NCBI GenBank assembly: GCA_019306075.1
Contig: JAFDME010000001.1
Span: forward strand, 1 to 56,481
Reading direction: 5' to 3'
DNA length: 56,481 bases
Source: Deltaproteobacteria bacterium
Lineage (GTDB): Bacteria; Desulfobacterota; Desulfobulbia; Desulfobulbales; Desulfocapsaceae
Shown here: in pieces, positions 5,592 to 56,481 of the stretch
Numbering within the stretch: position 1 is the first letter of the stretch
Layout: every line of letters begins with the position of its first letter
Notes under the pieces: generated by a model
Told to the model about the DNA's origin: nothing
What the model saw: only the letters and a program-made list of their open reading frames with translations
Database searches by the model: none
Position numbers and translations under genes: made by a program

Positions 5592-7478
5592 TTATATCAT
5601 GGCACGGACCTTGTTCTTAATATCTTCAACAGCCAAACCCTGATGCGGCAACTGTTCCGCTATGCCCCCATGACCGAGTTTGCTTGTTCCCATAAGAGAA
5701 TAGCGCGGAGAGAACCCTCTTTCAAGCAGCCAGGTTCCATAACGGACACCAAGACCTGTTTTGCTGTTCTGACTCTCCACAACCAGGGCAAAAGGACTTT
5801 TACCCACCTTTGCCAGCATATCCTCATCAATTATATTAAGGGTCGGCTTATTAATTAGACCGATATTGAATCCCTCCTTTTTCAACTGCTCTACCGCATC
5901 AAGACATCTGTAAACCATTTCACCATAAGTGACAATTACACCATCACTTCCATCCCTTACAATTTCATCCTGATCCGGAGTAAAGACATAATCATCACCA
6001 TAAAGTCTATCTCCCTTCCCTGTAAAAATATACGGTGTGGCCGATCTGGTTGAGAACACAAATCGCAGACCGGGATGATTAAAAATTTCCTTTAACAATC
6101 CCCGCAACTGACCGGCATCAGCGGGGAAATAGAGGCGGGTGAGATCACTCTCGGCAAGGGCATTATCTGCAAAGAAATTATTGATGCCGAAATGGCAGGT
6201 GTTATCAGCCATATCATCAATCCCGGAATGGGAAAAATGAGCGATCACATTGGCGTCATTTAAACGAGCCATGGTTATCTCAGAGACAACCATCTCAAGA
6301 AAGGCGGCAAAGGTCCCAAAGATGCCAACACGCCCCGGCTCCGAACCAAACCCGGCGGCAACAGAGTAGTTGTTTCTTTCCATAATCCCGCCATTAACAT
6401 AAACTTCCGGGTGATTTTTACGGATATGATGCAGCCCGCAGGATCCTTCCAGATCCGAGTCAACCACCAGCACCTTCGAGGAGGCGTCCTCTGTATTATC
6501 CAGAATCTCGCAGATTACCTTACCGAAATCATCCCGCACCTTTGCGGTTTCCGAACTGCTTCCAAGATATTCAGTTGTAACTTTTTCTGTTTTATAGCTG
6601 GTCAGTGCATTAACAGCTTCCGTCAAACCACGACTGGTAAGATAGTCAACAGCAAGATCCACAGCAATAACATCATGCCCCTTTGATGTCCCCTCGATAC
6701 CAGCGATACCCACCGCCATGGGCCTTTTATTGATAAGAGCCGAAGGACCGTCACTGGTCAATGCCTCCCGTATACGATCAAAAAGCGACTCGATATTCTC
6801 TCCGTCTCCGGCATTGGCCGGCAGCCCGTGTCCTTCAAGAGTGGAAACCACATCGTAACCATGCAGGTATTCGCTTGGATGACCGGCAATAGTTACATCA
6901 TTGTCATCGATAAACAGTTTAACCTTCAGGTTTCTGGCAACAGCATAACGCGCTGCTTCGGCATTATCTCCCTCCATCTGAGAACCGTCACTGCCGAACA
7001 TAACGACTGTTTTTTCCGGTTCAGCTTCAGCCACACCATTGACATAACTCCAGAGGTGTCCAAGCCGGCCCGATGAGAAAAAGATCCCATTCTTCTCATC
7101 CCGCTCCGGATGACCATAATACCCCTTATCATATTCCCGATAATGAAGAAGTGATTCCGCCTCACGATAACCGTTCAACACCGCCATCATATACTGAATG
7201 GCAACCCTGTGGCCTGCCTCATCAAAGTAGACAGGGTGAATTGTATCGGTCCCTTTCATAAACCCGTCGACGATGAGGAGTTCCGGAACGATATCAAAGG
7301 CACCTCCTGTATGTCCTCCAAGCCCTTTCACATTGGCCAGGGCAGTAAAAAACACCAGGCTATCCCGGACGAGAGAGATATTTTCTTTTAACGTCTGCAA
7401 CTGGTCATCAGTTAATTTTTCCTGACTTAAATTAAACTTCAAAGGAGTGTAGCGATCTAAATCGAGAGGTAAATCCAT
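5592..7478 (-). CDS. Transketolase-family ThDP-dependent enzyme (single-chain)
   Basis: GGHTGG, EAGH, GHPE, SSGRLGH, GSDGSQMEG...DDN ThDP motif, GIMERN pyrimidine-binding motif; GGAG RBS before ATG 7478. Confidence 0.85.
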   Translation of the reverse strand: MDLPLDLDRYTPLKFNLSQEKLTDDQLQTLKENISLVRDSLVFFTALANVKGLGGHTGGAFDIVPELLIVDGFMKGTDTIHPVYFDEAGHRVAIQYMMAVLNGYREAESLLHYREYDKGYYGHPERDEKNGIFFSSGRLGHLWSYVNGVAEAEPEKTVVMFGSDGSQMEGDNAEAARYAVARNLKVKLFIDDNDVTIAGHPSEYLHGYDVVSTLEGHGLPANAGDGENIESLFDRIREALTSDGPSALINKRPMAVGIAGIEGTSKGHDVIAVDLAVDYLTSRGLTEAVNALTSYKTEKVTTEYLGSSSETAKVRDDFGKVICEILDNTEDASSKVLVVDSDLEGSCGLHHIRKNHPEVYVNGGIMERNNYSVAAGFGSEPGRVGIFGTFAAFLEMVVSEITMARLNDANVIAHFSHSGIDDMADNTCHFGINNFFADNALAESDLTRLYFPADAGQLRGLLKEIFNHPGLRFVFSTRSATPYIFTGKGDRLYGDDYVFTPDQDEIVRDGSDGVIVTYGEMVYRCLDAVEQLKKEGFNIGLINKPTLNIIDEDMLAKVGKSPFALVVESQNSKTGLGVRYGTWLLERGFSPRYSLMGTSKLGHGGIAEQLPHQGLAVEDIKNKVRAMI

Positions 7479-7565
7479 TTCATTCTCCAATCAGCATTAA
7501 TGCCCTTTCCCGGGCTGATAATATTGTTTCCGATATGACAAAAGCAAAGACATTGTTTACCAGAG

Positions 7566-8888
7566 TCAACTCTGCTCTTTTTCCTGCGGTAAAACAAGAT
7601 TTAGAAACAGACCAAGAATTCCTGCCAGACCGATTTTCTCTATGGCAAAAGATCCGGCTGTAAACTTCATGCCGCCAATGCCGCAAACCAGAATTACAGC
7701 CACTATAATCAGATTTCTGGGGGTTGTAAGGTCCTGGCCTGATTTTACCAGGGTGTTAATCCCCATAACAGTAATCATGCCAAAAAGCAGAATCATAATT
7801 CCCCCCATAACAGGGCTGGGAATGGTAGCAAGAAGAGCCCCGACTTTCCCGACAAGAGAAAGTAGAATAGCGGTCAGTGCCGCCCAGGTCATAATTGCCG
7901 GATTATAGGCCTTGGTTAATGCAACAGCCCCGCTCACCTCAGAATATGTTGTGTTCGGGGGCCCGCCAAGCATCGAGGCCAAAGATGTGGCAATACCATC
8001 ACCCAGCAGAGTATTTTCAATTCCCGGATCCTTCACATAATCTTTGCCGGTTATGGCACCAACAGCCAGGATATCACCAAAATGTTCGATTGCAGGAGCG
8101 ATAGCCACAGGAACAATAAATAAGACAGCCTCCCACTTCCACTCAGGCAGCACAAATGCAGGCATCGCAAACCATGCCTTATCCGCAAGGGGAGCCAGTG
8201 AGATCAGCGCAGGAGAAGTCCAGTTCGGCAGGGCACCCGGATCAAACGAGGCCTGTATTGAGGCTGTAAATCCTGTAACATCGAGAAAAAAGGCTGTCAG
8301 ATAACCACCACAGATACCGCAAATGATCGGAATGAGCTTCAGCCAGCCCCGGCCAAGCAGAGACACAAGCACAGTTGTTGCCAGGGAGACACCCGCCACA
8401 ATCATGGCGGTTTTTTCAGGAACCAGCCATGCCGACCCATCGCCCGTGCGTCCGGAGGCCATATCTACGGCAACGGGGGCCAGAACAAGACCGATCACCA
8501 TAATGACAGGACCGGTAACAACCGGGGGCAGAACCCTGTGAAGAACATCGGAGCCAAAGAACCGGATAGCAAGACTCAACAGGACGTAAAACCCACCGGC
8601 AGCGGCAAGACCGCACATGGTCGCAGGAATCCCCCAGGTCTGAACACCGTAAATAATAGGTGCAATAAAGGCAAAGGATGAGGCCAGAAAAACTGGAACT
8701 TTTCCCCTGGTTATAACTTGAAACACCAGGGTCCCGAGGCCGGCAGTAAAAAGAGCCACATTGGGATCAAGGCCTGTCAATATTGGAACAAGAACCAGCG
8801 CTCCAAAAGCCACAAAAAGCATCTGTGCTCCAAGCAGACTGTCACCCAATCTGAATTTATAGTCACTACTCCGCGTCTCACCGGGCAT
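7566..8888 (-). CDS. uraA: Uracil-xanthine permease (NCS2 family)
   Basis: QMLFVAFGA, FLASSFAF, EHFGD, GGPPNTTYSE motifs; directly downstream of upp; GGAGG RBS before ATG 8888. Confidence 0.9.
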   Translation of the reverse strand: MPGETRSSDYKFRLGDSLLGAQMLFVAFGALVLVPILTGLDPNVALFTAGLGTLVFQVITRGKVPVFLASSFAFIAPIIYGVQTWGIPATMCGLAAAGGFYVLLSLAIRFFGSDVLHRVLPPVVTGPVIMVIGLVLAPVAVDMASGRTGDGSAWLVPEKTAMIVAGVSLATTVLVSLLGRGWLKLIPIICGICGGYLTAFFLDVTGFTASIQASFDPGALPNWTSPALISLAPLADKAWFAMPAFVLPEWKWEAVLFIVPVAIAPAIEHFGDILAVGAITGKDYVKDPGIENTLLGDGIATSLASMLGGPPNTTYSEVSGAVALTKAYNPAIMTWAALTAILLSLVGKVGALLATIPSPVMGGIMILLFGMITVMGINTLVKSGQDLTTPRNLIIVAVILVCGIGGMKFTAGSFAIEKIGLAGILGLFLNLVLPQEKEQS

Positions 8889-8982
8889 ACCTTTAACCTC
8901 CATTTATTCGTTTTAAAAAAATTTGTAAACCGGGATGAAATTCCAACAATCCTGCAGGAATCCTCAATGCTGAATGAAGGAC

Positions 8983-9017
8983 AAAAAAAAAGTCATTACA
9001 GAGACTGTAATGACTTT
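8983..9017 (-). terminator. Intrinsic terminator-like hairpin between upp and uraA
   Basis: Perfect stem AAAGTCATTACAG/CTGTAATGACTTT followed by a T-run on the minus strand. Confidence 0.75.
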
Positions 9018-9022
9018 CAGGG

Positions 9023-9649
9023 TTACTTTGTCCCGAAGATTTTATCTCCGGCATCTCCAAGTCCAGGCAATATGTATCCAACCTCATTTAATCGATCATC
9101 CACCGCAGCAACATAAATCTCCACATCGGGATGGGCATCCGTCACTTTTTTTATCCCCTCTGGTGCCGCCACAAGAAAAAGCCCCTTTATTGTTTTACAT
9201 CCAGCTTTTTTCAAGGTTTCAATGGTAGCAAGCAGCGTACCACCGGTGGCCAGCATCGGATCCAGAATCAAAGCAATACGCTCATCGATTTCTTTTGCTG
9301 TTTTAACATAATACTCTACCGGCTGGAGAGTCTCTTCATTGCGGTAATAGCCGACAACACTCACTTTGGCGGAAGGAATAAGATCAATAACACCATCCAT
9401 CATACCCAAACCAGCCCGCAGAATCGGCACAATGGTAATTTTTTTGCCCTTCAATTTCTCAACATCAACTGACCCGGCCCAGCCCTCAATCGTTTTTTTC
9501 TGCAGAGGCAGATCCTTCGTAGCCTCATAGGTCAATAATCTGGCCACCTCCGAGGAAAGGTCCCGAAAATCCTTGGTTGAGATATCATGCCTTCGCATAA
9601 GACCGAGTTTATGTTTAATCAGTGGATGATCCGCTACATGTACTGTCAT
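9023..9649 (-). CDS. upp: Uracil phosphoribosyltransferase
   Basis: [44 protein letters not shown]. Confidence 0.97.
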
Positions 9650-9777
9650 AATCGTCTCCTGGAGTACAAATTTATCAACTCACATTTTTTCTTTGACAAA
9701 ATATATGTGGGTTCCTGTTATAAAAAAATACCGGGAAATAGCAAGGTATTTTCCACACGCCAGGCAGGCAAAAAGTA

Positions 9778-10680
9778 TCAATCCAGGCTTCGAACTCTAC
9801 CAATCCTGGTGTAGGGCAAAAGTTCCACCGCGAGAATACTGGCAAAAATCAGGAAGCCTCCCATAAACTGCATAATCGTAAGTCGCTCACCTAAAAACAA
9901 CATACCACTGATTGCTGCAAAAACCGCCTCTGAACTGAGAATGATTGCTGCATCCGGTGCCGGAGTATATCTCTGGCCGACAACCTGCAGAGTAAAAGCC
10001 ATACCAACAGAAAAGAGGCCGATATAACAGATACCCCAGGCAGCTCCCAAAAAATCGGCGACGAGAGGTTTTTCAACAAAGCAACCGAGAGTCAGCCCTA
10101 AAATACCGCAGACAGTAAACTGTGTCGCGGCGACAACAAGGGGAGCCCTGGTCCTTGAAGCCATAGCCCCGACCAGCATGACATGGACAGCCCAGAACAG
10201 CGTACTGGAGATTACCCAGAGATCACCCTCGACAAGTTCAACTCTGTGAGCCCCACTCATAATATAGGTGCCGATAAAACAACAAATTGATGCAGGCCAG
10301 ACAATAAAAGGCACTTTACGTCTTAAAAAGAAAAACCCGAGAAACGGTACAAGGGGAACATAGAGAGAGGTCAGGAAACCTGAATTAATCACACTGGTTC
10401 GAAGAATGCCATGCTGCTGAAGAACAGCAGCCGTGAGCAGCACGGTTCCGGTAATGACCAGCACCAGCCAGTCATCTATCTTAAATTTCCTCACATCTCT
10501 CTCTACCCTGTGAAACTGCTTCAGGGCGAAAGGAAAAACGATGAGTGCACCTACCAGAAAGCGAGCTCCGGTAAAGCTTATTGCACCGAGATTTCCAACT
10601 CCTATCTGCTGCACTACGAAACTTGAACCCCAGATCGCTGCAGCCAGAGTCAGGAGCAAGTTAGCCTGTAACCGATTCAT
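9778..10680 (-). CDS. DMT/EamA family transporter
   Basis: ~10 hydrophobic helices in two EamA repeats; IWGSSF, AIILSSEAVFAA, FLGE motifs. Confidence 0.9.
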   Translation of the reverse strand: MNRLQANLLLTLAAAIWGSSFVVQQIGVGNLGAISFTGARFLVGALIVFPFALKQFHRVERDVRKFKIDDWLVLVITGTVLLTAAVLQQHGILRTSVINSGFLTSLYVPLVPFLGFFFLRRKVPFIVWPASICCFIGTYIMSGAHRVELVEGDLWVISSTLFWAVHVMLVGAMASRTRAPLVVAATQFTVCGILGLTLGCFVEKPLVADFLGAAWGICYIGLFSVGMAFTLQVVGQRYTPAPDAAIILSSEAVFAAISGMLFLGERLTIMQFMGGFLIFASILAVELLPYTRIGRVRSLD

Positions 10681-48860: not shown

Positions 48861-48986
48861 CCCGAATAGATCGGAATATTTAAAATGCCTGGATAAGTGC
48901 CTTGCTGCTGACATCAACCAAACGAGTTTAATAGCACTATAGATTTTCTTGTTCTTCTTTACAGCTTTTATCAAGTAAGGCACTAA
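48858..48986 (+). repeat. Dispersed intergenic repeat family A, copy 6 (tandem to copy 5, sharing TAA)
   Basis: TAACCCGAATAGATCGG..CTGGATAAGTGCCTTGCT...ACAGCTTTTATCAAGTAAGGCACTAA; end contains the cydB stop codon. Confidence 0.85.
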
Positions 48987-50116
48987 TACGCTTTATCATC
49001 AGCAAGATCCTTCATATCGATCTTCCTCGAATCCATCTGACGCCAGGCATAGGTTACATACCCCAGAACAAAAGGTATCAGAAAGGCGACATAGGTCATC
49101 ACGGTCAAAGTATAATGACTGGAAGACGCATTGTAAATTGAGAGACTCGACTGTAAGTCCACCTTGGACGGATAGAAAGCTGTGTTATTAAATCCGGCAG
49201 TAAAGAAGATGGCCAGACCGACGAGAACCGTACCCAGGCCGCCAAACCATATACCATTGGTCCCGGAGGCAAGGCTTGTGCGAAGAACTCCCATCACGAC
49301 GAGAATAATCCCCACCAGCAGCATTCCCAGAACTGCAGGCATGGCCAGAAGATTGCCCAGATACTTGAAGCTGACCATACTGACAACTCCGTTTTCATCA
49401 AAACCGTAACCGTCAATAACCAGCAAGGCTACCAGTACATAGAGCAGAAATGGCAGAGAATAGAGGAAATTGGCCAAACATGCTTTCCTCAGCCGGACTT
49501 CCAGATCAGGAGTCTCTGTGAAATCTATATTATTTACCAGGTACATGGAACCGAGCACCCGGGCGTTTAATACCAGAAAAATCCCAAGGGACAGATTAAA
49601 AAAAGAGAAGGCCCCCTCAACTCCACGAAGAGAATTCGTCCAGGTAACCTGGTTCATACTATTCAAGGTGAAATTCGAACCGGTAAAGAAAGTACCCACT
49701 GCTACCCCTATCAGGAGAATCCCTACGGAGCCGTTAATAAAAAGGAACAGCTCATACACCTTTTCACCCAGCAGGTTAGCCGGTTTTGTACGATACTCAT
49801 AGCTCACTGCCTGTATAATAAACGAAAAAAGAATAAGCATCCACACCCAGTACGCTCCACCAAAACTGGTGGCATAGAATTTAGGAAAAGCAGCAAACAG
49901 TGCTCCCCCGAAAAGAACCAGCGTGGTGAAGGTCAACTCCCATTTCCTGCCCAGGGAATTTATCACCAGCGACCTTTCTATTTCGCCCTTTGCCACTTGC
50001 CAGAGCAGCGTCTGACCGCCCTGAACGAAGGTTAAAAAGAGAAAGAGGGCTCCAACAACCGAGCAGATAATCCACCAGATCTGCTGCAGTACTACCATAT
50101 CCAGATTAGCAATCAT
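48983..50116 (-). CDS. cydB: Cytochrome bd oxidase subunit II
   Basis: Polytopic membrane protein; GRKWELTFTTLVLFGGALFAAFP, SIYNASSSHYTL; follows cydA. Confidence 0.93.
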   Translation of the reverse strand: MIANLDMVVLQQIWWIICSVVGALFLFLTFVQGGQTLLWQVAKGEIERSLVINSLGRKWELTFTTLVLFGGALFAAFPKFYATSFGGAYWVWMLILFSFIIQAVSYEYRTKPANLLGEKVYELFLFINGSVGILLIGVAVGTFFTGSNFTLNSMNQVTWTNSLRGVEGAFSFFNLSLGIFLVLNARVLGSMYLVNNIDFTETPDLEVRLRKACLANFLYSLPFLLYVLVALLVIDGYGFDENGVVSMVSFKYLGNLLAMPAVLGMLLVGIILVVMGVLRTSLASGTNGIWFGGLGTVLVGLAIFFTAGFNNTAFYPSKVDLQSSLSIYNASSSHYTLTVMTYVAFLIPFVLGYVTYAWRQMDSRKIDMKDLADDKAY

Positions 50117-50117
50117 T

Positions 50118-51650
50118 TTACACGCCCTCCGGTCCTATTTTGATCTGCCTGAGCATAATTTTAATCTCCGCGAGTAACAGCACGGCAAACAACACAAAAA
50201 ACATAAAGAATGTCGCTTTTACATGTCCTGCCGCAATATTGGTGGTGGCAACTTTTACAGGCATCAGATCCTGAATGGCCCAGGGCTGACGACCAACTTC
50301 AGCAACAACCCAGCCAAGCTCTGAAGCAGTCAGTGCCATAAAAAAAGAGAAGAAGCCGAGTACCAGCAGCCATGTTTTATCTTCCAGAGTTTCTTTATAG
50401 GAAAAGTAGAGATAGAGCATCAGAAGAAGAATAAAAAATGAACCAAGAAAAACCATACCATGGAAGGAGTAGTAGGTGGTAGCCACCGGTGGTACAACCT
50501 CTTCGGGAGTGTCAAGATAGCCAAAACCCAGATAATCCTGGTTTTCCCTGAATCGTTTAAGGGCAGCAGCTTTAGCCTGTTCATCACCGGCTTTTCCAGC
50601 CTCCTGTATGGCTGCGAGATCCGCAATGGCTGCCTTCCCTTTCTTCATCTTCTCGGCAACCGGCATAATACCTTCCGCCTCGTTACCATAAACAAGGTCT
50701 TTAATCCCGGGAACAAAAGCATTCCACTCCCTTTTTGCCAATACAGACAGTCCATGTGGAATTGATACTTCAAAGGCAAATGGCTCCTGACCGTCACCAA
50801 GCCTTTTGCCGCTGTTTAAGACACCAAGAGCTACAATCTCCGCCCCTTTTGCTCCGTCAAAAAGTCCTTCATAGGCAGCCAGTTTCATGGGCTGAAATCG
50901 CCCGTTGTTAAAGGCGGATTCATCACCGGTAAAGGCGGTAAACAGGGAGGCGAGAAGACCAAAAACCGAGGCCACTATGATCGATTTTTTTGCCATATCG
51001 ACGTGGCGGCCTCTCAGCAGATAGTAGGAGGAAATCGTAATTACAAAGAGAGAACCGACGACAAAACTTGAGCTGGTGGTATGAGTAAACTTGGCGATCG
51101 CTATTGGTGCGAAAAGAACCTCCCCGAAATTCTGCATCTCAAAACGAGCACTCTCAGGGTTAAAGACCATACCGAGCGGATACTGCATCCAACCGTTAGC
51201 AACAAGAATCCAGAGCGCTGAAAGATTGGAACCTATGGCAACCATCCAGGTAGCAAAAAGATGAAACCCTTTTGAGGTCCGGTCCCAGCCAAAAAACATC
51301 ACGGCGAAAAAGGTTGCCTCCAGGAAGAAGGCGAGAAGACCTTCAATAGCCAGCGGAGCGCCAAAGATATCACCGACCATCCAGGAATAATTTGACCAGT
51401 TTGTACCAAACTGGAATTCGAGAATAATTCCGGTGGCAACCCCAATGGCAAAGTTGATACCAAACAATGTCATCCAAAACTTTGTTATTCTCTTCCAATC
51501 CTCATTACCGGTACGCACATACATCGACTCAAAAAACGCACAAAGAAACGACAACCCCAGAGTAAGCGGGACAAAAATCCAGTGATACATTGCTGTCAGG
51601 ATAAACTGTGCCCTTGCCCAGTTCACCGTGGCCAGATCAATTTCACTCAT
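50118..51650 (-). CDS. cydA: Cytochrome bd oxidase subunit I
   Basis: MYHWIFVP, EFQFGTNW, ANGWMQ, KFTHT, QPMKLAA.EG, FHGM, EVGRQPW. Confidence 0.96.
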   Translation of the reverse strand: MSEIDLATVNWARAQFILTAMYHWIFVPLTLGLSFLCAFFESMYVRTGNEDWKRITKFWMTLFGINFAIGVATGIILEFQFGTNWSNYSWMVGDIFGAPLAIEGLLAFFLEATFFAVMFFGWDRTSKGFHLFATWMVAIGSNLSALWILVANGWMQYPLGMVFNPESARFEMQNFGEVLFAPIAIAKFTHTTSSSFVVGSLFVITISSYYLLRGRHVDMAKKSIIVASVFGLLASLFTAFTGDESAFNNGRFQPMKLAAYEGLFDGAKGAEIVALGVLNSGKRLGDGQEPFAFEVSIPHGLSVLAKREWNAFVPGIKDLVYGNEAEGIMPVAEKMKKGKAAIADLAAIQEAGKAGDEQAKAAALKRFRENQDYLGFGYLDTPEEVVPPVATTYYSFHGMVFLGSFFILLLMLYLYFSYKETLEDKTWLLVLGFFSFFMALTASELGWVVAEVGRQPWAIQDLMPVKVATTNIAAGHVKATFFMFFVLFAVLLLAEIKIMLRQIKIGPEGV

Positions 51651-51664
51651 TGTTACATCCTCCG

Positions 51665-51895
51665 TTAATGATTATTTCCTGCCGACCTTGTCAACTGGTT
51701 AATAACATGGTCAGCCCTTTGCTGATCTGTTGAGAAGTTGCTGTTAAGATAGTTGGGGAAAAAGAAAAGTTTGAGTACAGCAAACATAATTATCAGTTTG
51801 ATAATTATGATTTTCCATAGAGTCTTACCGACGGTCATGCGGCGAAAACCGTCCCGGTAAAATCTGAAGAGTCGTACTGGATATCCCGCTGCCAT
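51665..51895 (-). CDS. Small membrane protein preceding cydA (DUF4492-like)
   Basis: FRFYRDGFRRMTVGKTLWKIIIIKLIIMFAVLKLFFFP; start placed at ATG 51895. Confidence 0.8.
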   Translation of the reverse strand: MAAGYPVRLFRFYRDGFRRMTVGKTLWKIIIIKLIIMFAVLKLFFFPNYLNSNFSTDQQRADHVINQLTRSAGNNH

Positions 51896-52163
51896 CACAT
51901 GCCCTTTTCTATTTTTCAATCCCTTCATCCACGGGTCATCCGCAAGATGCTGGCCCGTTATGCGCATATGCAAGCTCATTTTATAACTCTATATCAGACT
52001 ATGGTCAAGAATAATAATCATTCGCTCAGGATATATCAGCTACGCCCAATTGAACAGGAAATAGCAAAAAGTGTCGTCCTTTCTGGATGCTCATGGAGGG
52101 GGTAAAAATGTTGGCAGGATTACATGAAAGTCCGGGCAAAGCAGAGATTAAATACCACCATCT

Positions 52164-52532
52164 CTACCGGGGAAAGGTCACCTGCACAGATTTGCCACCA
52201 TATCCGTGAACAGAATCATGAGCCCTAACTGTCACTGCGACTATATCATCAGCTATCTTCAACCCGGCCAGGCTGCGGGTAAACGGCTGCTCATCCACAT
52301 GAGGATGATAGAGGGTTCGGGTGCCGATAACGGTACCATCAGGGCCAGCAATCTCCCATTTATCCGCATAATGATCCCAGCCTTCATCGGAATGGGAAAC
52401 GGTGACATCAAACCGAAAGATATTGCTTCCAGTTTTTTCAACTTTCACGGCAACAACATTCGCCTCTCCAGCCTGCAGAACTGACGAAGACATCAACAGA
52501 AACGAAACTACAGGCAACCATATTTTCATCAT
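52164..52532 (-). CDS. Exported hypothetical protein
   Basis: Signal peptide; HSDEGWDHYADKW, LYHPHVDEQPFTRS, AHDSVHG with several His residues. Confidence 0.75.
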   Translation of the reverse strand: MMKIWLPVVSFLLMSSSVLQAGEANVVAVKVEKTGSNIFRFDVTVSHSDEGWDHYADKWEIAGPDGTVIGTRTLYHPHVDEQPFTRSLAGLKIADDIVAVTVRAHDSVHGYGGKSVQVTFPR

Positions 52533-52609: not shown

Positions 52610-54934
52610 TCAAGCCAGACCTGCCAACTTCCTGATGGCTACCTTTTCTCGCAAAAGAGTCCGGAATTCCTCTGCGGGAATTGGGGGACTAAAGAAATAG
52701 CCCTGTATCATATCCACTTCCCGATGACGTAAAAAACTGAGCTGTTCTTTTGTTTCAACTCCTTCGGCCACAATTTCCAGTTTCAAACTCTGGCCCATGG
52801 CAATAATAGCCTCAACCAGAGCCCGGCTGTTCCTGTTATCCTCAAGGTCATGAATAAAGCTGCGGTCAATTTTCAACACGTGCAGGGGAAAACGCTTGAG
52901 ATAACTGAGGGAGGAATAACCCGTGCCAAAATCATCCAGTGCCAGCCCTATACCCTGGCGGTCAAGGGTCTTCAGGACAATAAGAGGCTGATCGGAATCC
53001 TGCAGAAGCAGGCTTTCGGTGATCTCAAGTTCCAGCTGACTTTTCGACAGTCCACTGACACTCAAGGCCCTGTCCACAGCCTCCAGCAAAGTACCCGAGC
53101 GAAACTGCTGGGGCGAGACATTGACCGAAACAGTCAGTTTTTCTCCGAAATCACTCTCCCACAACTTTGCCTCACAGCAGGCAACCTCAAGAACCCATGA
53201 GCCAAGTTCATTAATTAAACCGAGATTTTCCGCCAGAGGAATAAATACGTCCGGTGAAACAGTACCGAGTTTGGGATTATACCAGCGCAACAGGGCTTCC
53301 GCACCGGTTATCCGACCTTTTCCTATATCAACTTTAGGCTGGTAGTAAAGAGAAAGTTCTTCTTTTTCAAGCGCATAACGGAGCTGGTTGGCTACAGCCA
53401 TCAACTGTTCCGAGGTGCGCCGCATCTCAAGGGAGAAAAAACGGAAGGTATTCCGCCCATCCTCTTTGGCCTGATACATAGCCATGTCGGCATACTGCAT
53501 CAGTTGGTCAAGGGACTCGCCGTCATCAGGAAAGATACTGATACCAACACTGATGGTAGTATAAACTTCCCTCTCATTAACTATAAACGGCTGTTGGAAA
53601 AGATTGATCAGCTTACGGGCGACGACCTCCGCATGAACATTTTCCTCCAGGCTTTCCAAAAGAATCGTGAACTCATCCCCCCCGGTGCGTGCCGGGGTAT
53701 CACTCTCCCGCAGTAAATCACGGAGGCGGGCTGCAGTCTGCTTCAGGACTTCATCTCCAACGTCGTGACCAAGGGTATCATTGATATTCTTGAAATTGTC
53801 AAGATCAATAAAAAGCAGGGCAACTTTCTTCCTGGATCGACGCGCCCTGGTAAACGCGGAATTCATATAGGACTGCATATAGTGGCGATTTAACAGCCCG
53901 GTCAACTGGTCAAAATTAGCCTGGTAAATCAGCTTCTCTTCCCACTCAGTGCGCTCAGTGATATCCTGCGCTGTAACAACAACAATGGGTGGATCATCCA
54001 GAGTGGAAAGCTGTATCCTTGCCTCAACAGGATAGGTCGAGCCATCTTTGCGGCGATGAGTACCCTTATGGACCACCGCCTCCCAGCGGCCATTGCCCAG
54101 CGGCGCAATAAGTTCAGCAAATGAAGCTTGGTCCTGATCAGTTAATATATCGAGGAAATTTATATTTTCAAACTCCTCTTTGGTATAACCCAGGTTTTCA
54201 ACCGCCCCTCTGTTGACCTGAAGACAGTTTAAAGATTCAGCATCGATAATAAAAATTTCGGTTGAGCCATCATTTAGAACAGACCCAAGTCGATTATTAA
54301 GCTTGTTTTTTTCCTCTTTAAGATCCTCCAATAGATTTTTGTTCTCATAGCGTAGTCGCATGGTAAGGATAAAATTATCATTATATTCCTTGCTGAATTT
54401 CATAAAGGCAATAATCAAAATCAACGTCAACAAGCCAGTACCAAAATATACGCTATCACCACCTAATATGGTTTGATAAACTATGGGCATCATCAACGTC
54501 AGTTCATAAACGCCAAAAGCAAACACGTCGAGCAGAATGGCCACAGCCCCGGCAGTAACTCCACAAGGATAAAAAATTGCTAGAAAAAGATACGACAGAG
54601 GTTCATGCGGGAAAAAAAATAAATTAAGGCTACCTATAGTCAGGCCAATCACAAAAATGCTGGCACGAAAAATGTTCAGCCAGAAAGATAAAGAGTGAGT
54701 ATTTTTGTTAACATTTCCATACAACCGAAAAAGAAACCAACGCCCTAAAAGAACAGAAAGAAAAACCAAATACCAAGCCAAAAGAGGACGCCAAGGGAAT
54801 CTCCAACTAAGTAGCAGTACATATAAAGAACCTGAAATTAATAAACTCAATGAAGCAGACTTTGATCTACGATAAAGCTCATCAACCCTGTTTTGCTCAA
54901 TTCTTTGATCAATGCTAACGTATTGATTATTCAT
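52610..54934 (-). CDS. Membrane-anchored PAS-GGDEF-EAL c-di-GMP enzyme (candidate DSF receptor, RpfR-like output)
   Basis: About 5-6 N-terminal TM helices, coiled coil, PAS/PAC (VNRGA..LGY, RRKDGS.YPVE, QDITER), DQLTGLLNR, RESD I-site, GGDEF, EAL, DDFGTGYSSL. Confidence 0.9.
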   Translation of the reverse strand: MNNQYVSIDQRIEQNRVDELYRRSKSASLSLLISGSLYVLLLSWRFPWRPLLAWYLVFLSVLLGRWFLFRLYGNVNKNTHSLSFWLNIFRASIFVIGLTIGSLNLFFFPHEPLSYLFLAIFYPCGVTAGAVAILLDVFAFGVYELTLMMPIVYQTILGGDSVYFGTGLLTLILIIAFMKFSKEYNDNFILTMRLRYENKNLLEDLKEEKNKLNNRLGSVLNDGSTEIFIIDAESLNCLQVNRGAVENLGYTKEEFENINFLDILTDQDQASFAELIAPLGNGRWEAVVHKGTHRRKDGSTYPVEARIQLSTLDDPPIVVVTAQDITERTEWEEKLIYQANFDQLTGLLNRHYMQSYMNSAFTRARRSRKKVALLFIDLDNFKNINDTLGHDVGDEVLKQTAARLRDLLRESDTPARTGGDEFTILLESLEENVHAEVVARKLINLFQQPFIVNEREVYTTISVGISIFPDDGESLDQLMQYADMAMYQAKEDGRNTFRFFSLEMRRTSEQLMAVANQLRYALEKEELSLYYQPKVDIGKGRITGAEALLRWYNPKLGTVSPDVFIPLAENLGLINELGSWVLEVACCEAKLWESDFGEKLTVSVNVSPQQFRSGTLLEAVDRALSVSGLSKSQLELEITESLLLQDSDQPLIVLKTLDRQGIGLALDDFGTGYSSLSYLKRFPLHVLKIDRSFIHDLEDNRNSRALVEAIIAMGQSLKLEIVAEGVETKEQLSFLRHREVDMIQGYFFSPPIPAEEFRTLLREKVAIRKLAGLA

Positions 54935-54966
54935 AAGTTTAGAATGTTGGCCAGCTTCTCCGACAA

Positions 54967-55962
54967 TTAATGAAACAAACGCCTATCTGGTTTTTTGCGC
55001 CTATCGAACATAATCATCTCTCCAGACCAATCCACCAGGGGAAAAGAATCCTTCTCTGTCATAAAGCGACGATCTTGCTTTGTTCTTATTAAAGATCTAC
55101 TTGTTTGCTTAGAGATTTTCGTGAGCTGCGCTTTTACTAATCTTTCCATCAACTGTAAATCCTTGCTTTCCAGACGCAAGGCAGCGTCAGCCCAAATTTC
55201 TATTACGTCAGTAAATTCTTTGAAATCAATCGGATGGTAGCGTTGTCTGACCTGCTGTAAAGCCCGTCGTCCATTACCCGAACGTTGGTGTTGTCGAATA
55301 TATTTCTCAACACTTGCCATACCTTCATCAGCATTTACCAGAAGGTGCACAATTCCCATTTTATGTAAGGTTTTGGCACCATATGTAACGCCGCTGGTAA
55401 TCATTTTCTCGGCAATTGCTATACCACAGGTACGTGCCAAGAAATTATAGGCTCCCATCCCAGGAAAAAGGTTAAAACGTATTTCAGGAAAACCCATTTC
55501 TGCATTTTCCGTAGCAATCAACACGTTACTCGCTAAAGCTGACTCAAATCCACCGCCAAGGGCCAATCCTTCAACGAGAGAAATTGTAGTAAGAGGCAAG
55601 TGCAAATTCACGAAATTAAGATAGGTCAACTCCACACATAAATTTGCGTATTTATACAATTGCTTTCTGTTTTTCTCTTTTATCAACTTAACAAAAAGAG
55701 CTAAATCTCCGCCTAAATTAAAAATCCCAGGAATTTGGGAGTTCATAACCAAATAACGAATCGGAAATTCCTGACCCTCTTTTCTCGTATTATAATAGTC
55801 AATAATCCTTTGATACATTCGCCGAATATCTTTCAATAAAACCAAGGTAAAGCAGGGACGAGGTATTGGATTATAATAACACCAGATGGTTTGATGCTGA
55901 ACATCATACCTGAGAGAAAGTTCCCGATAGCCTTCAAATATACCAAAAAAATCCTGGTTCAC
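54967..55962 (-). CDS. rpfF: Crotonase-family DSF (cis-2-unsaturated fatty acid signal) synthase, RpfF-like, with C-terminal extension
   Basis: PRPCF, FNLGGDLALF, TISLVEGLALGGGFE, GFPEIRFNLFPGMGAY, WADAAL, MERLVKAQ: RpfF-type motifs including both catalytic glutamates. Confidence 0.85.
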   Translation of the reverse strand: MNQDFFGIFEGYRELSLRYDVQHQTIWCYYNPIPRPCFTLVLLKDIRRMYQRIIDYYNTRKEGQEFPIRYLVMNSQIPGIFNLGGDLALFVKLIKEKNRKQLYKYANLCVELTYLNFVNLHLPLTTISLVEGLALGGGFESALASNVLIATENAEMGFPEIRFNLFPGMGAYNFLARTCGIAIAEKMITSGVTYGAKTLHKMGIVHLLVNADEGMASVEKYIRQHQRSGNGRRALQQVRQRYHPIDFKEFTDVIEIWADAALRLESKDLQLMERLVKAQLTKISKQTSRSLIRTKQDRRFMTEKDSFPLVDWSGEMIMFDRRKKPDRRLFH

Positions 55963-56481
55963 ACCAATACCTTAGATTAAAAAAATTCTTAAATTCTAAA
56001 CTTCACTTTAAATTTTCTCTCACACAGAACAAATCACATAATTTCCAGCTGAACACCCTGAAGATAAGCAACAACTATTACAAAACAGAAAGTTAGAAGT
56101 CAATTTCTTTTAATTATAATGATCCGAAATACGTTGAATTTAAATTGTCTGATTATGCTGTTCCGGCAGAACCTTATAAAAATTCTGCACCATAACCGAT
56201 ATTCTCATAATTGACCTTAAACGTCAAAGTTAACTTTCAGCACTTATATAACACGAACTACAGGCAGAAATATTACCACATATTAATAACATGATTATAC
56301 CATTGAATCAACTGTTTAAGCCCATCCCCAAAAAAGATATTGGTACCACCAAAACAATCACAGAGAAAAAACTTGACGACTCTTTTCCTCTTATATACTT
56401 TAAGGTTAAAGTGATATAGAAATAATATATCTTCAGCCTGTATCCACGATTACAGTCTTTCAACATAAAAAGCGAAGGCTA

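Follow-up and report, generated by a model that had tools for sequence, protein, structure and literature searches.

An arginine-tailed RpfF-like synthase beside a membrane-bound cyclic di-GMP enzyme: a candidate DSF-type signalling cassette in a sulfate-reducer-like Desulfobacterota genome

This report concerns two neighbouring genes in a 56,481-nucleotide stretch of DNA (contig JAFDME010000001.1 of assembly GCA_019306075.1; hereafter the window) from a Deltaproteobacteria bacterium of the family Desulfocapsaceae. The first encodes a crotonase of the RpfF clade and the second a membrane-anchored enzyme of cyclic di-GMP (c-di-GMP) metabolism. Our sequence comparisons indicate that the locus is a conserved, real variant of diffusible signal factor (DSF)-type signalling with two undescribed parts, and we think it quite likely that the pair forms a DSF-like cassette that both makes and senses a signal. 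The fuller scenario that we favor, with a probability of roughly 0.5, is a self-contained DSF circuit consisting of a synthase, sensing within the membrane, a c-di-GMP enzyme and feedback through an arginine-rich tail on the synthase.

The earlier note on this DNA, made from the letters alone, had described two co-oriented open reading frames 32 bp apart, the upstream one an RpfF-like synthase and the downstream one an enzyme with transmembrane (TM), PAS, GGDEF and EAL regions, and all of this stood up to closer analysis. Both frames lie on the minus strand, as do all features given below: the crotonase (331 aa, GTG start) at 54967-55962 and its partner (774 aa) at 52610-54934. The intervening 32 bp (54935-54966) hold no terminator-like site, which together with the short gap is consistent with a single operon. 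Against PRK08788, for which the cut-off is 177 bits, the crotonase reaches 346.6, and its top four PDB matches are all RpfF-type (E 4e-50 to 2e-48), the next crotonase following at 5e-18. It is 33% identical to Burkholderia cenocepacia RpfF and has in common with that protein the signature around both glutamates; E140 (GGGFE) and E160 (FPEI), encoded within 55483-55545, align with its E138 and E158 and are kept in 120/120 homologues. We take this glutamate pair to be catalytic. On the RpfF equivalog NF053515 the crotonase reaches 208 bits (cut-off 550), a model too narrow even for B. cenocepacia RpfF, which scores 188. The phylogeny against other enoyl-CoA hydratases that had been proposed as a check nests the crotonase among RpfFs: 43 RpfF-like rows, including the crotonase, separate from the two outgroups with an SH-like approximate likelihood ratio test (SH-aLRT) support of 100, in a tree built by a quick method with SH-aLRT as its sole support measure, with no Xanthomonas sequence and with rows OUT3, OUT4 and P0240 left out. 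It is also the only RpfF-like gene in the host genome, where the six other crotonase matches are at 6e-15 or weaker. Taken at the level of sequence, the crotonase is likely a DSF-family fatty-acid signal synthase.

The synthase ends in a part that the earlier note overlooked. The tail, residues 291-329 (54976-55092), is a module of about 40 residues that is set off from the crotonase fold by a variable linker and reads RxxxDRR, an FP-led predicted beta-hairpin and DRRxxxDRR. It was found in 120/120 top homologues, with R293, D297, R298, R299, F307, P308, R321, R322 and R327 invariant; six of its arginines are thus kept throughout and a seventh in 119/120, and not one Arg-to-Lys swap occurs among these homologues. 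Conservation of the tail (73%) approaches that of the core (77%), against 48% for the linker. The tail is absent from the 15 other RpfFs (15/15) in a sample of 401 genomes from the phylum. A tree of the core only places the 24 tailed rows on one side of a branch within the RpfF group (SH-aLRT 91), and the presence of the tail needs one change on that tree, compared with 15.3 when shuffled; the tail arose once on the tree.

Structure prediction, at a predicted template modelling score of only 0.35, places the hairpin at residues 309-317, ahead of D320-R321-R322; the gaps between the three DRRs are 20 and 3 residues. There is a precedent for a peptide of this kind: the available part of the CleD report describes a small hairpin ahead of a DRR, the DRR and an (R/K)RxxD motif gripping a c-di-GMP dimer (PMC7382256). 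We would put the chance that the tail binds c-di-GMP at slightly under even. RpfC is described as holding RpfF by an interaction similar to that of the FI domain of RpfR (PMC8357829). Given that known RpfFs are held by a partner domain and that neither FI nor RpfC is found here, the tail is a candidate restraint on the synthase, and a better candidate than the membrane domain for the feedback role of FI.

A search of 1.84 billion representative sequences with the tail profile gave 87 matches, comprising RpfF tails or fragments, many stand-alone proteins, fusions to FHA domains and a few noise matches (the repeat-rich P0179, P0183, P0185, P0213, P0259 and P0263 were set aside, and locus L069, which has no module, was left out of the stand-alone set). 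Among P0195-P0264, dozens of proteins of 46-95 aa carry the module on its own, four join tandem copies of it to FHA domains (P0199, P0203, P0204, P0236), and in P0214, P0252 and P0254 it follows one membrane helix. Four tailed RpfFs (P0028, P0035, P0042, P0058) carry about 55 extra residues of DRR/ERR repeats with a six-residue period. No Pfam family was recognised for the module in 25 module proteins and no NCBIfam family in 19, only the fused FHA domains being identified. Searches of the PDB by tail profile and by tail fold returned nothing significant, and an Atlas search with one homologue's tail gave no usable match. The RpfF literature that we searched, which covers few subscription journals, yielded no description of a C-terminal tail.

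Conservation of the pair supports the idea that the two genes belong together, and the synteny between rpfF and a TM-PAS-GGDEF-EAL gene that the earlier note proposed to look for was found. RpfF-like genes are present in 9/61 related genomes, each of which belongs to the same family as the host, and in 20/401 of the phylum sample. After removal of two duplicates there were 21 distinct tailed-RpfF loci, of which two end at a contig edge; a co-oriented partner with six TM helices (6TM-PAS-GGDEF-EAL) is present in 17 of the 19 with readable downstream DNA. The genes flanking the pair vary between genomes, and for this reason we consider that it behaves as a cassette. A profile of the partner's membrane domain matched 14/401 phylum genomes at 1e-20, five of them strongly (<1e-70); these five are exactly the five with a tailed RpfF, and none of the 15 genomes with a tail-less RpfF is among them. 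Where rpfF lies at a contig edge, as in two phylum genomes, the partner begins at the edge of another contig. Among the 61 relatives there are two strong partner orthologues without rpfF, the first truncated where its contig begins and the second carrying a frameshift. The latter (L082:5279-7571, genome G027) is broken near its 5' end with no rpfF nearby, possibly reflecting decay after loss of the synthase, or a sequence error. Of the tail-less RpfFs in the phylum sample, 13/15 are convergent to a hybrid kinase in a Xanthomonas-type layout (L032, L035, L036, L038-L040 and L042-L048; 13/401 genomes), and by gene arrangement the phylum carries at least two putative DSF circuit layouts. In a divergent sub-clade (L018:5424-11244 and L019:3528-9224) RpfF has a divergent tail and is joined by genes for a FabF-like ketoacyl synthase and a cyclopropane-fatty-acid-synthase-like protein, which hints at a fatty-acid product, perhaps a cyclopropane-modified or otherwise tailored signal.

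The partner contains a PAS domain (residues 227-327; 53954-54256), a GGDEF domain (339-495; 53450-53920) with an RESD I-site at 409-412 and GGDEF at 418-422, and an EAL domain (516-751; 52682-53389) with intact catalytic motifs, the domain limits being those of Pfam. The intactness of these motifs, already noted earlier, extends across 53 orthologues: GGDEF and DDFGTG are present in 53/53, EALLR, EVLLR or ESLLR likewise in 53/53, and the RxxD I-site in at least 49/53, counting its five commonest variants. An alignment of the PAS to the ligand residues of RpfR, which had been suggested as a check, gave a negative answer. In the available text of PMC6361424 the RpfR PAS binds DSF via S168, N171, R186 and N201; the first three correspond to A273, I276 and G291 here, and one-residue shifts restore no triad. 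The register for this comparison was taken from motif anchors, the MAFFT, HMMER and hhalign alignments being mis-registered, and it leaves N201 unmapped. The partner PAS is of the Pfam type PAS_9; searched against the PDB, it gave no RpfR PAS or FI match at E up to 1, and hhalign assigned probabilities of 0.5% to the RpfR PAS and 0.07% to FI. The 85%-complete host genome has no match to FI or to an RpfC-like membrane domain. The partner PAS is nonetheless strongly conserved among orthologues, including polar R295, Q308 and Q323. Judged by sequence, the partner is not RpfR-like, as FI is missing and the RpfR PAS ligand residues are not kept. The earlier note had left open whether DSF is sensed in the membrane or by PAS; of these options, the RpfR-style PAS one is weakened by the absence of the RpfR ligand residues.

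What occupies the N-terminus instead is a membrane domain with a signalling helix (residues 1-215; 54290-54934). AlphaFold2 predicts six helices with a mean local confidence (pLDDT) of 86, where a crude hydropathy scan found only four, and the region has no NCBIfam family and no Pfam match. The best Foldseek match is Pseudomonas aeruginosa ImcA (E 0.22). In structural alignment the model superimposes on the anchor of adenylyl cyclase (AC) AC9 with Z 13.0 and a root-mean-square deviation of 3.4 over 198 residues, and on realignment gives Z 11.5 with AC5, 11.3 with ImcA, 11.1 with AC8 and 7.2 with Rv1625c, at 8-12% identity over the ACs and ImcA. The ten best structural rows are all ACs or ImcA, the first unrelated row having Z 8.4. 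The domain is therefore predicted by modelling to fold like an AC six-helix anchor, and the earlier proposal that a multi-TM domain replaces FI stands as regards position but not kind, since the domain resembles an AC-class sensor and not FI. The AC-like, non-RpfR nature of the partner was, like the tail, missed in the earlier note, which was right about the pair itself.

There is precedent for ligand binding by such anchors. Those of mammalian cyclases and of Rv1625c have been reported as fatty-acid receptors, as far as the available parts of the two reports go (PMC11606603, PMC12505454), and the accessible text of a further paper describes AC anchors as built to the same design as CqsS, a quorum receptor, with homology versus convergence left open (PMC4821796). 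Residues Y38, R90 and D136 are present in 53/53 partner orthologues and in 0/8 generic homologues, and the position of R90 is hydrophobic in 8/8 of the latter. These orthologue-specific residues are consistent with a specialised ligand site, in which R90 is a candidate to pair with a ligand carboxylate. We consider it a little better than an even bet that sensing lies in the membrane domain.

A plausible scenario that brings these parts together, built largely by analogy with known systems, is as follows: (i) the synthase would dehydrate 3-hydroxyacyl-acyl carrier protein (ACP) and release a free cis-2 fatty acid; (ii) the fatty acid would bind within the partner's six-helix membrane domain, with Arg90 as the candidate carboxylate partner; (iii) the PAS would relay the change, and the bifunctional GGDEF-EAL portion would shift toward c-di-GMP breakdown, as in RpfR; and (iv) c-di-GMP would fold the tail and inhibit the synthase, such that falling c-di-GMP would release the synthase and lead to autoinduction. 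The last step is the least certain, and the sign of the c-di-GMP feedback on the synthase is a guess. The tail would thereby take over a role that falls to RpfR-FI or RpfC in the DSF systems known so far. Output could pass through PilZ and MshEN-type proteins and flagella of the host, for which a family scan of the genome found 10 PilZ, 3 MshEN-family and 2 flagellin-family matches.

Several observations count against this self-contained circuit. For the membrane domain, a Z of 13 lies just at the level up to which the alignment tool advises caution with helical bundles, and the Foldseek E value is weak; R90 could form a salt bridge with D136 instead of meeting a ligand; and the domain belongs to a widespread generic family, with a paralogue in the host genome and with no rpfF within 1.5 kb in 7/7 distant homologue loci. 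For the tail, the DRR-x11-(R/K)RxxD spacing given for the c-di-GMP-sequestering peptide (CSP) motif in the available part of PMC7382256 is missing, and no c-di-GMP gene was recognised beside 10 stand-alone relatives with genomic context, these contexts being mostly short contigs screened only with the present locus's own domains. With regard to the pair, one tailed RpfF (L017) lies beside an RpfC-like kinase and for another (L019) the retrieved sequence shows no sensor gene, so that the link between the tail and this partner is not a strict one, and the sampled genomes are kin, so that co-occurrence counts overstate the association. The L017 locus (7326-10360, genome G028), in which a tailed RpfF is convergent to an RpfC-like membrane kinase-receiver, is a hybrid of two layouts. 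The host paralogue (G000:C125:2311-4686) is a distant 6TM-GGDEF-EAL protein without R90, Y38 or D136.

These points leave room for three other explanations. The circuit might be of DSF make-and-sense type with the signal sensed through other residues of the PAS, or by a receptor encoded elsewhere, the membrane domain serving as an anchor or sensing something else. The strong conservation of the PAS, polar residues included, and the generic character of the membrane family speak for this, as does the RpfR precedent in the part of PMC6361424 available; but the RpfR triad is replaced, profile similarity to the RpfR PAS is negligible, and it is the membrane domain that has polar residues invariant only in the orthologues. 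On balance we find this unlikely. We think it just as unlikely that the circuit stands and the tail is instead a basic peptide that docks onto ACP, membrane phospholipid, the cytoplasmic part of the partner or nucleic acid. ACP, the substrate carrier of RpfF, is strongly acidic, which favours docking, and the inexact CSP spacing and the lack of recognised c-di-GMP genes near stand-alone relatives point the same way. Asp-Arg-Arg triplets in which Arg is never replaced by Lys in 120 homologues nevertheless suit recognition of a guanine edge over bulk charge; furthermore, the module is portable, existing by itself, as tandem copies and joined to FHA, and tail-less RpfFs do without it.

The third explanation, to which we assign the lowest probability and which seems to us quite improbable, is that the crotonase works in membrane-lipid remodelling, or in the making of a non-DSF lipid, as a dehydratase or thioesterase acting on acyl-ACP, with the neighbour sensing the state of the membrane as a form of metabolic monitoring. 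The FabF-like and cyclopropane-synthase-like neighbours in L018 and L019 would fit such a role, at some loci with a PRK08788-like gene (L029, L030, L053, L054) no sensor lies next to it, and identity to B. cenocepacia RpfF is just 33%. Set against this, the signature at both glutamates matches that RpfF, 13/15 tail-less relatives are convergent to a hybrid kinase in the Xanthomonas manner, and the cassette is patchy (9/61 relatives), unlike core lipid genes. Over all three explanations we prefer the self-contained circuit. We also considered ppGpp as a direct ligand of RpfF and rejected it, as the available part of PMC13382473 assigns ppGpp to RpfG and not to RpfF.

The earlier note knew of no DSF system characterised in sulfate-reducer-like bacteria, and our own literature search, in which few subscription journals were covered, found none in sulfate reducers. 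Matches to DSF-related genes in sulfate-reducer genomes have come from a hidden Markov model screen of cold seeps, according to the accessible part of that preprint (10.1101/2024.11.15.623595); with 73% of genomes positive, these matches probably include generic crotonases. Several homologues of the present crotonase are labelled 'DSF synthase' by JGI, and DSF-synthase annotation of the family is already routine. A homologue is also annotated in Desulfocastanea catecholica, a cultured member of the Desulfocapsaceae. Most characterisation of DSF signalling comes from acidophiles and aerobic pathogens, and the cassette would extend such signalling to anaerobes of sediments and biofilms. The pairing of synthase and sensor supplies a candidate cognate ligand for a widespread orphan family of six-helix sensors and is relevant to the unsettled proposal that AC-type anchors act as lipid receptors. 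If the tail binds c-di-GMP, it would represent a new binding motif, one that also occurs as stand-alone small proteins, and an autoinducer synthase would be under direct second-messenger control. The broadest formulation, that anaerobic Desulfobacterota hold a third class of DSF circuit in which an AC-type lipid receptor and a c-di-GMP enzyme are directly fused, and in which the synthase too acts as an effector of c-di-GMP via a portable, undescribed DRR-hairpin module, we regard as doubtful at present.

The sulfate-reducer-like character of the host, which the earlier note took for an anaerobic member of the Desulfobacterota, is supported by a dsrA match and by the Desulfobulbaceae, Desulfocapsaceae and Desulforhopalus labels on close relatives. 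The dsrA match is cut by a contig edge and scores 363 bits, below the cut-off of 393; a second, weaker dsrA match lies directly downstream of it. A promoter scan of the locus was at chance level (12 sites versus 9.9 expected), and no RNA holder is listed for it. GC content is 39.5% in rpfF, 36.7% in the membrane-domain region and 31% in the upstream DNA (interval 54290-56481), compared with 46.5% for the genome, an AT-richness in line with a mobile cassette as far as base composition can suggest one. Downstream, the interval 48983-52532 encodes a 122-aa protein that has no annotation and begins like a signal peptide, a DUF4492 protein and two further genes, which by eye we take to be cydA-cydB of a cytochrome bd oxidase; the genes of this interval are not kept beside the cassette in other genomes.

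In its gene content the locus comes closest to the RpfF-RpfR system of B. cenocepacia and Cronobacter turicensis, where, as described in the available part of PMC6361424, an RpfF-clade synthase likewise adjoins a one-component PAS-GGDEF-EAL enzyme. In both cases the signal is presumably wired straight to c-di-GMP. According to the same source, the FI domain of RpfR inhibits RpfF and the two genes are convergent, whereas the genes here are co-oriented, the partner is membrane-bound through six helices and has neither FI nor the DSF-binding PAS residues, and the synthase bears an extra arginine-rich tail. With the RpfF-RpfC-RpfG system of Xanthomonas and Leptospirillum (PMC8357829, PMC12838280) the locus has in common an RpfF, proposed sensing by a membrane domain and a c-di-GMP output. 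Within the phylum, an RpfF-RpfC-type layout is in fact seen more often (13/20 RpfF loci), but no kinase or phosphorelay is present at this locus, and hhalign found no profile similarity (0.15%) between the partner's membrane domain and the RpfC-like one from L017. The earlier view that the architecture is distinct from both the RpfR and the RpfC systems is thus upheld, there being no FI and no RpfC-type kinase at the locus.

The two added parts have their own counterparts elsewhere. Like the class III AC anchors (AC9, AC5, AC8 and Rv1625c) and ImcA, the membrane domain has a predicted six-helix fold over about 200 residues; unlike them, with identity in the 8-12% range, it is fused to PAS-GGDEF-EAL and gene-linked to the synthase of a candidate ligand. 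CqsS is likened to these anchors by its published design. The tail, in turn, resembles the arginine-rich region, or CSP, of Caulobacter CleA-E as the accessible text of PMC7382256 presents it, both being short peptides with DRR motifs and a beta-hairpin just ahead of a DRR. It differs from that region in having three DRRs (at gaps of 20 and 3), in a hairpin led by FP rather than YxGP, and in being fused to an enzyme rather than to a receiver domain.

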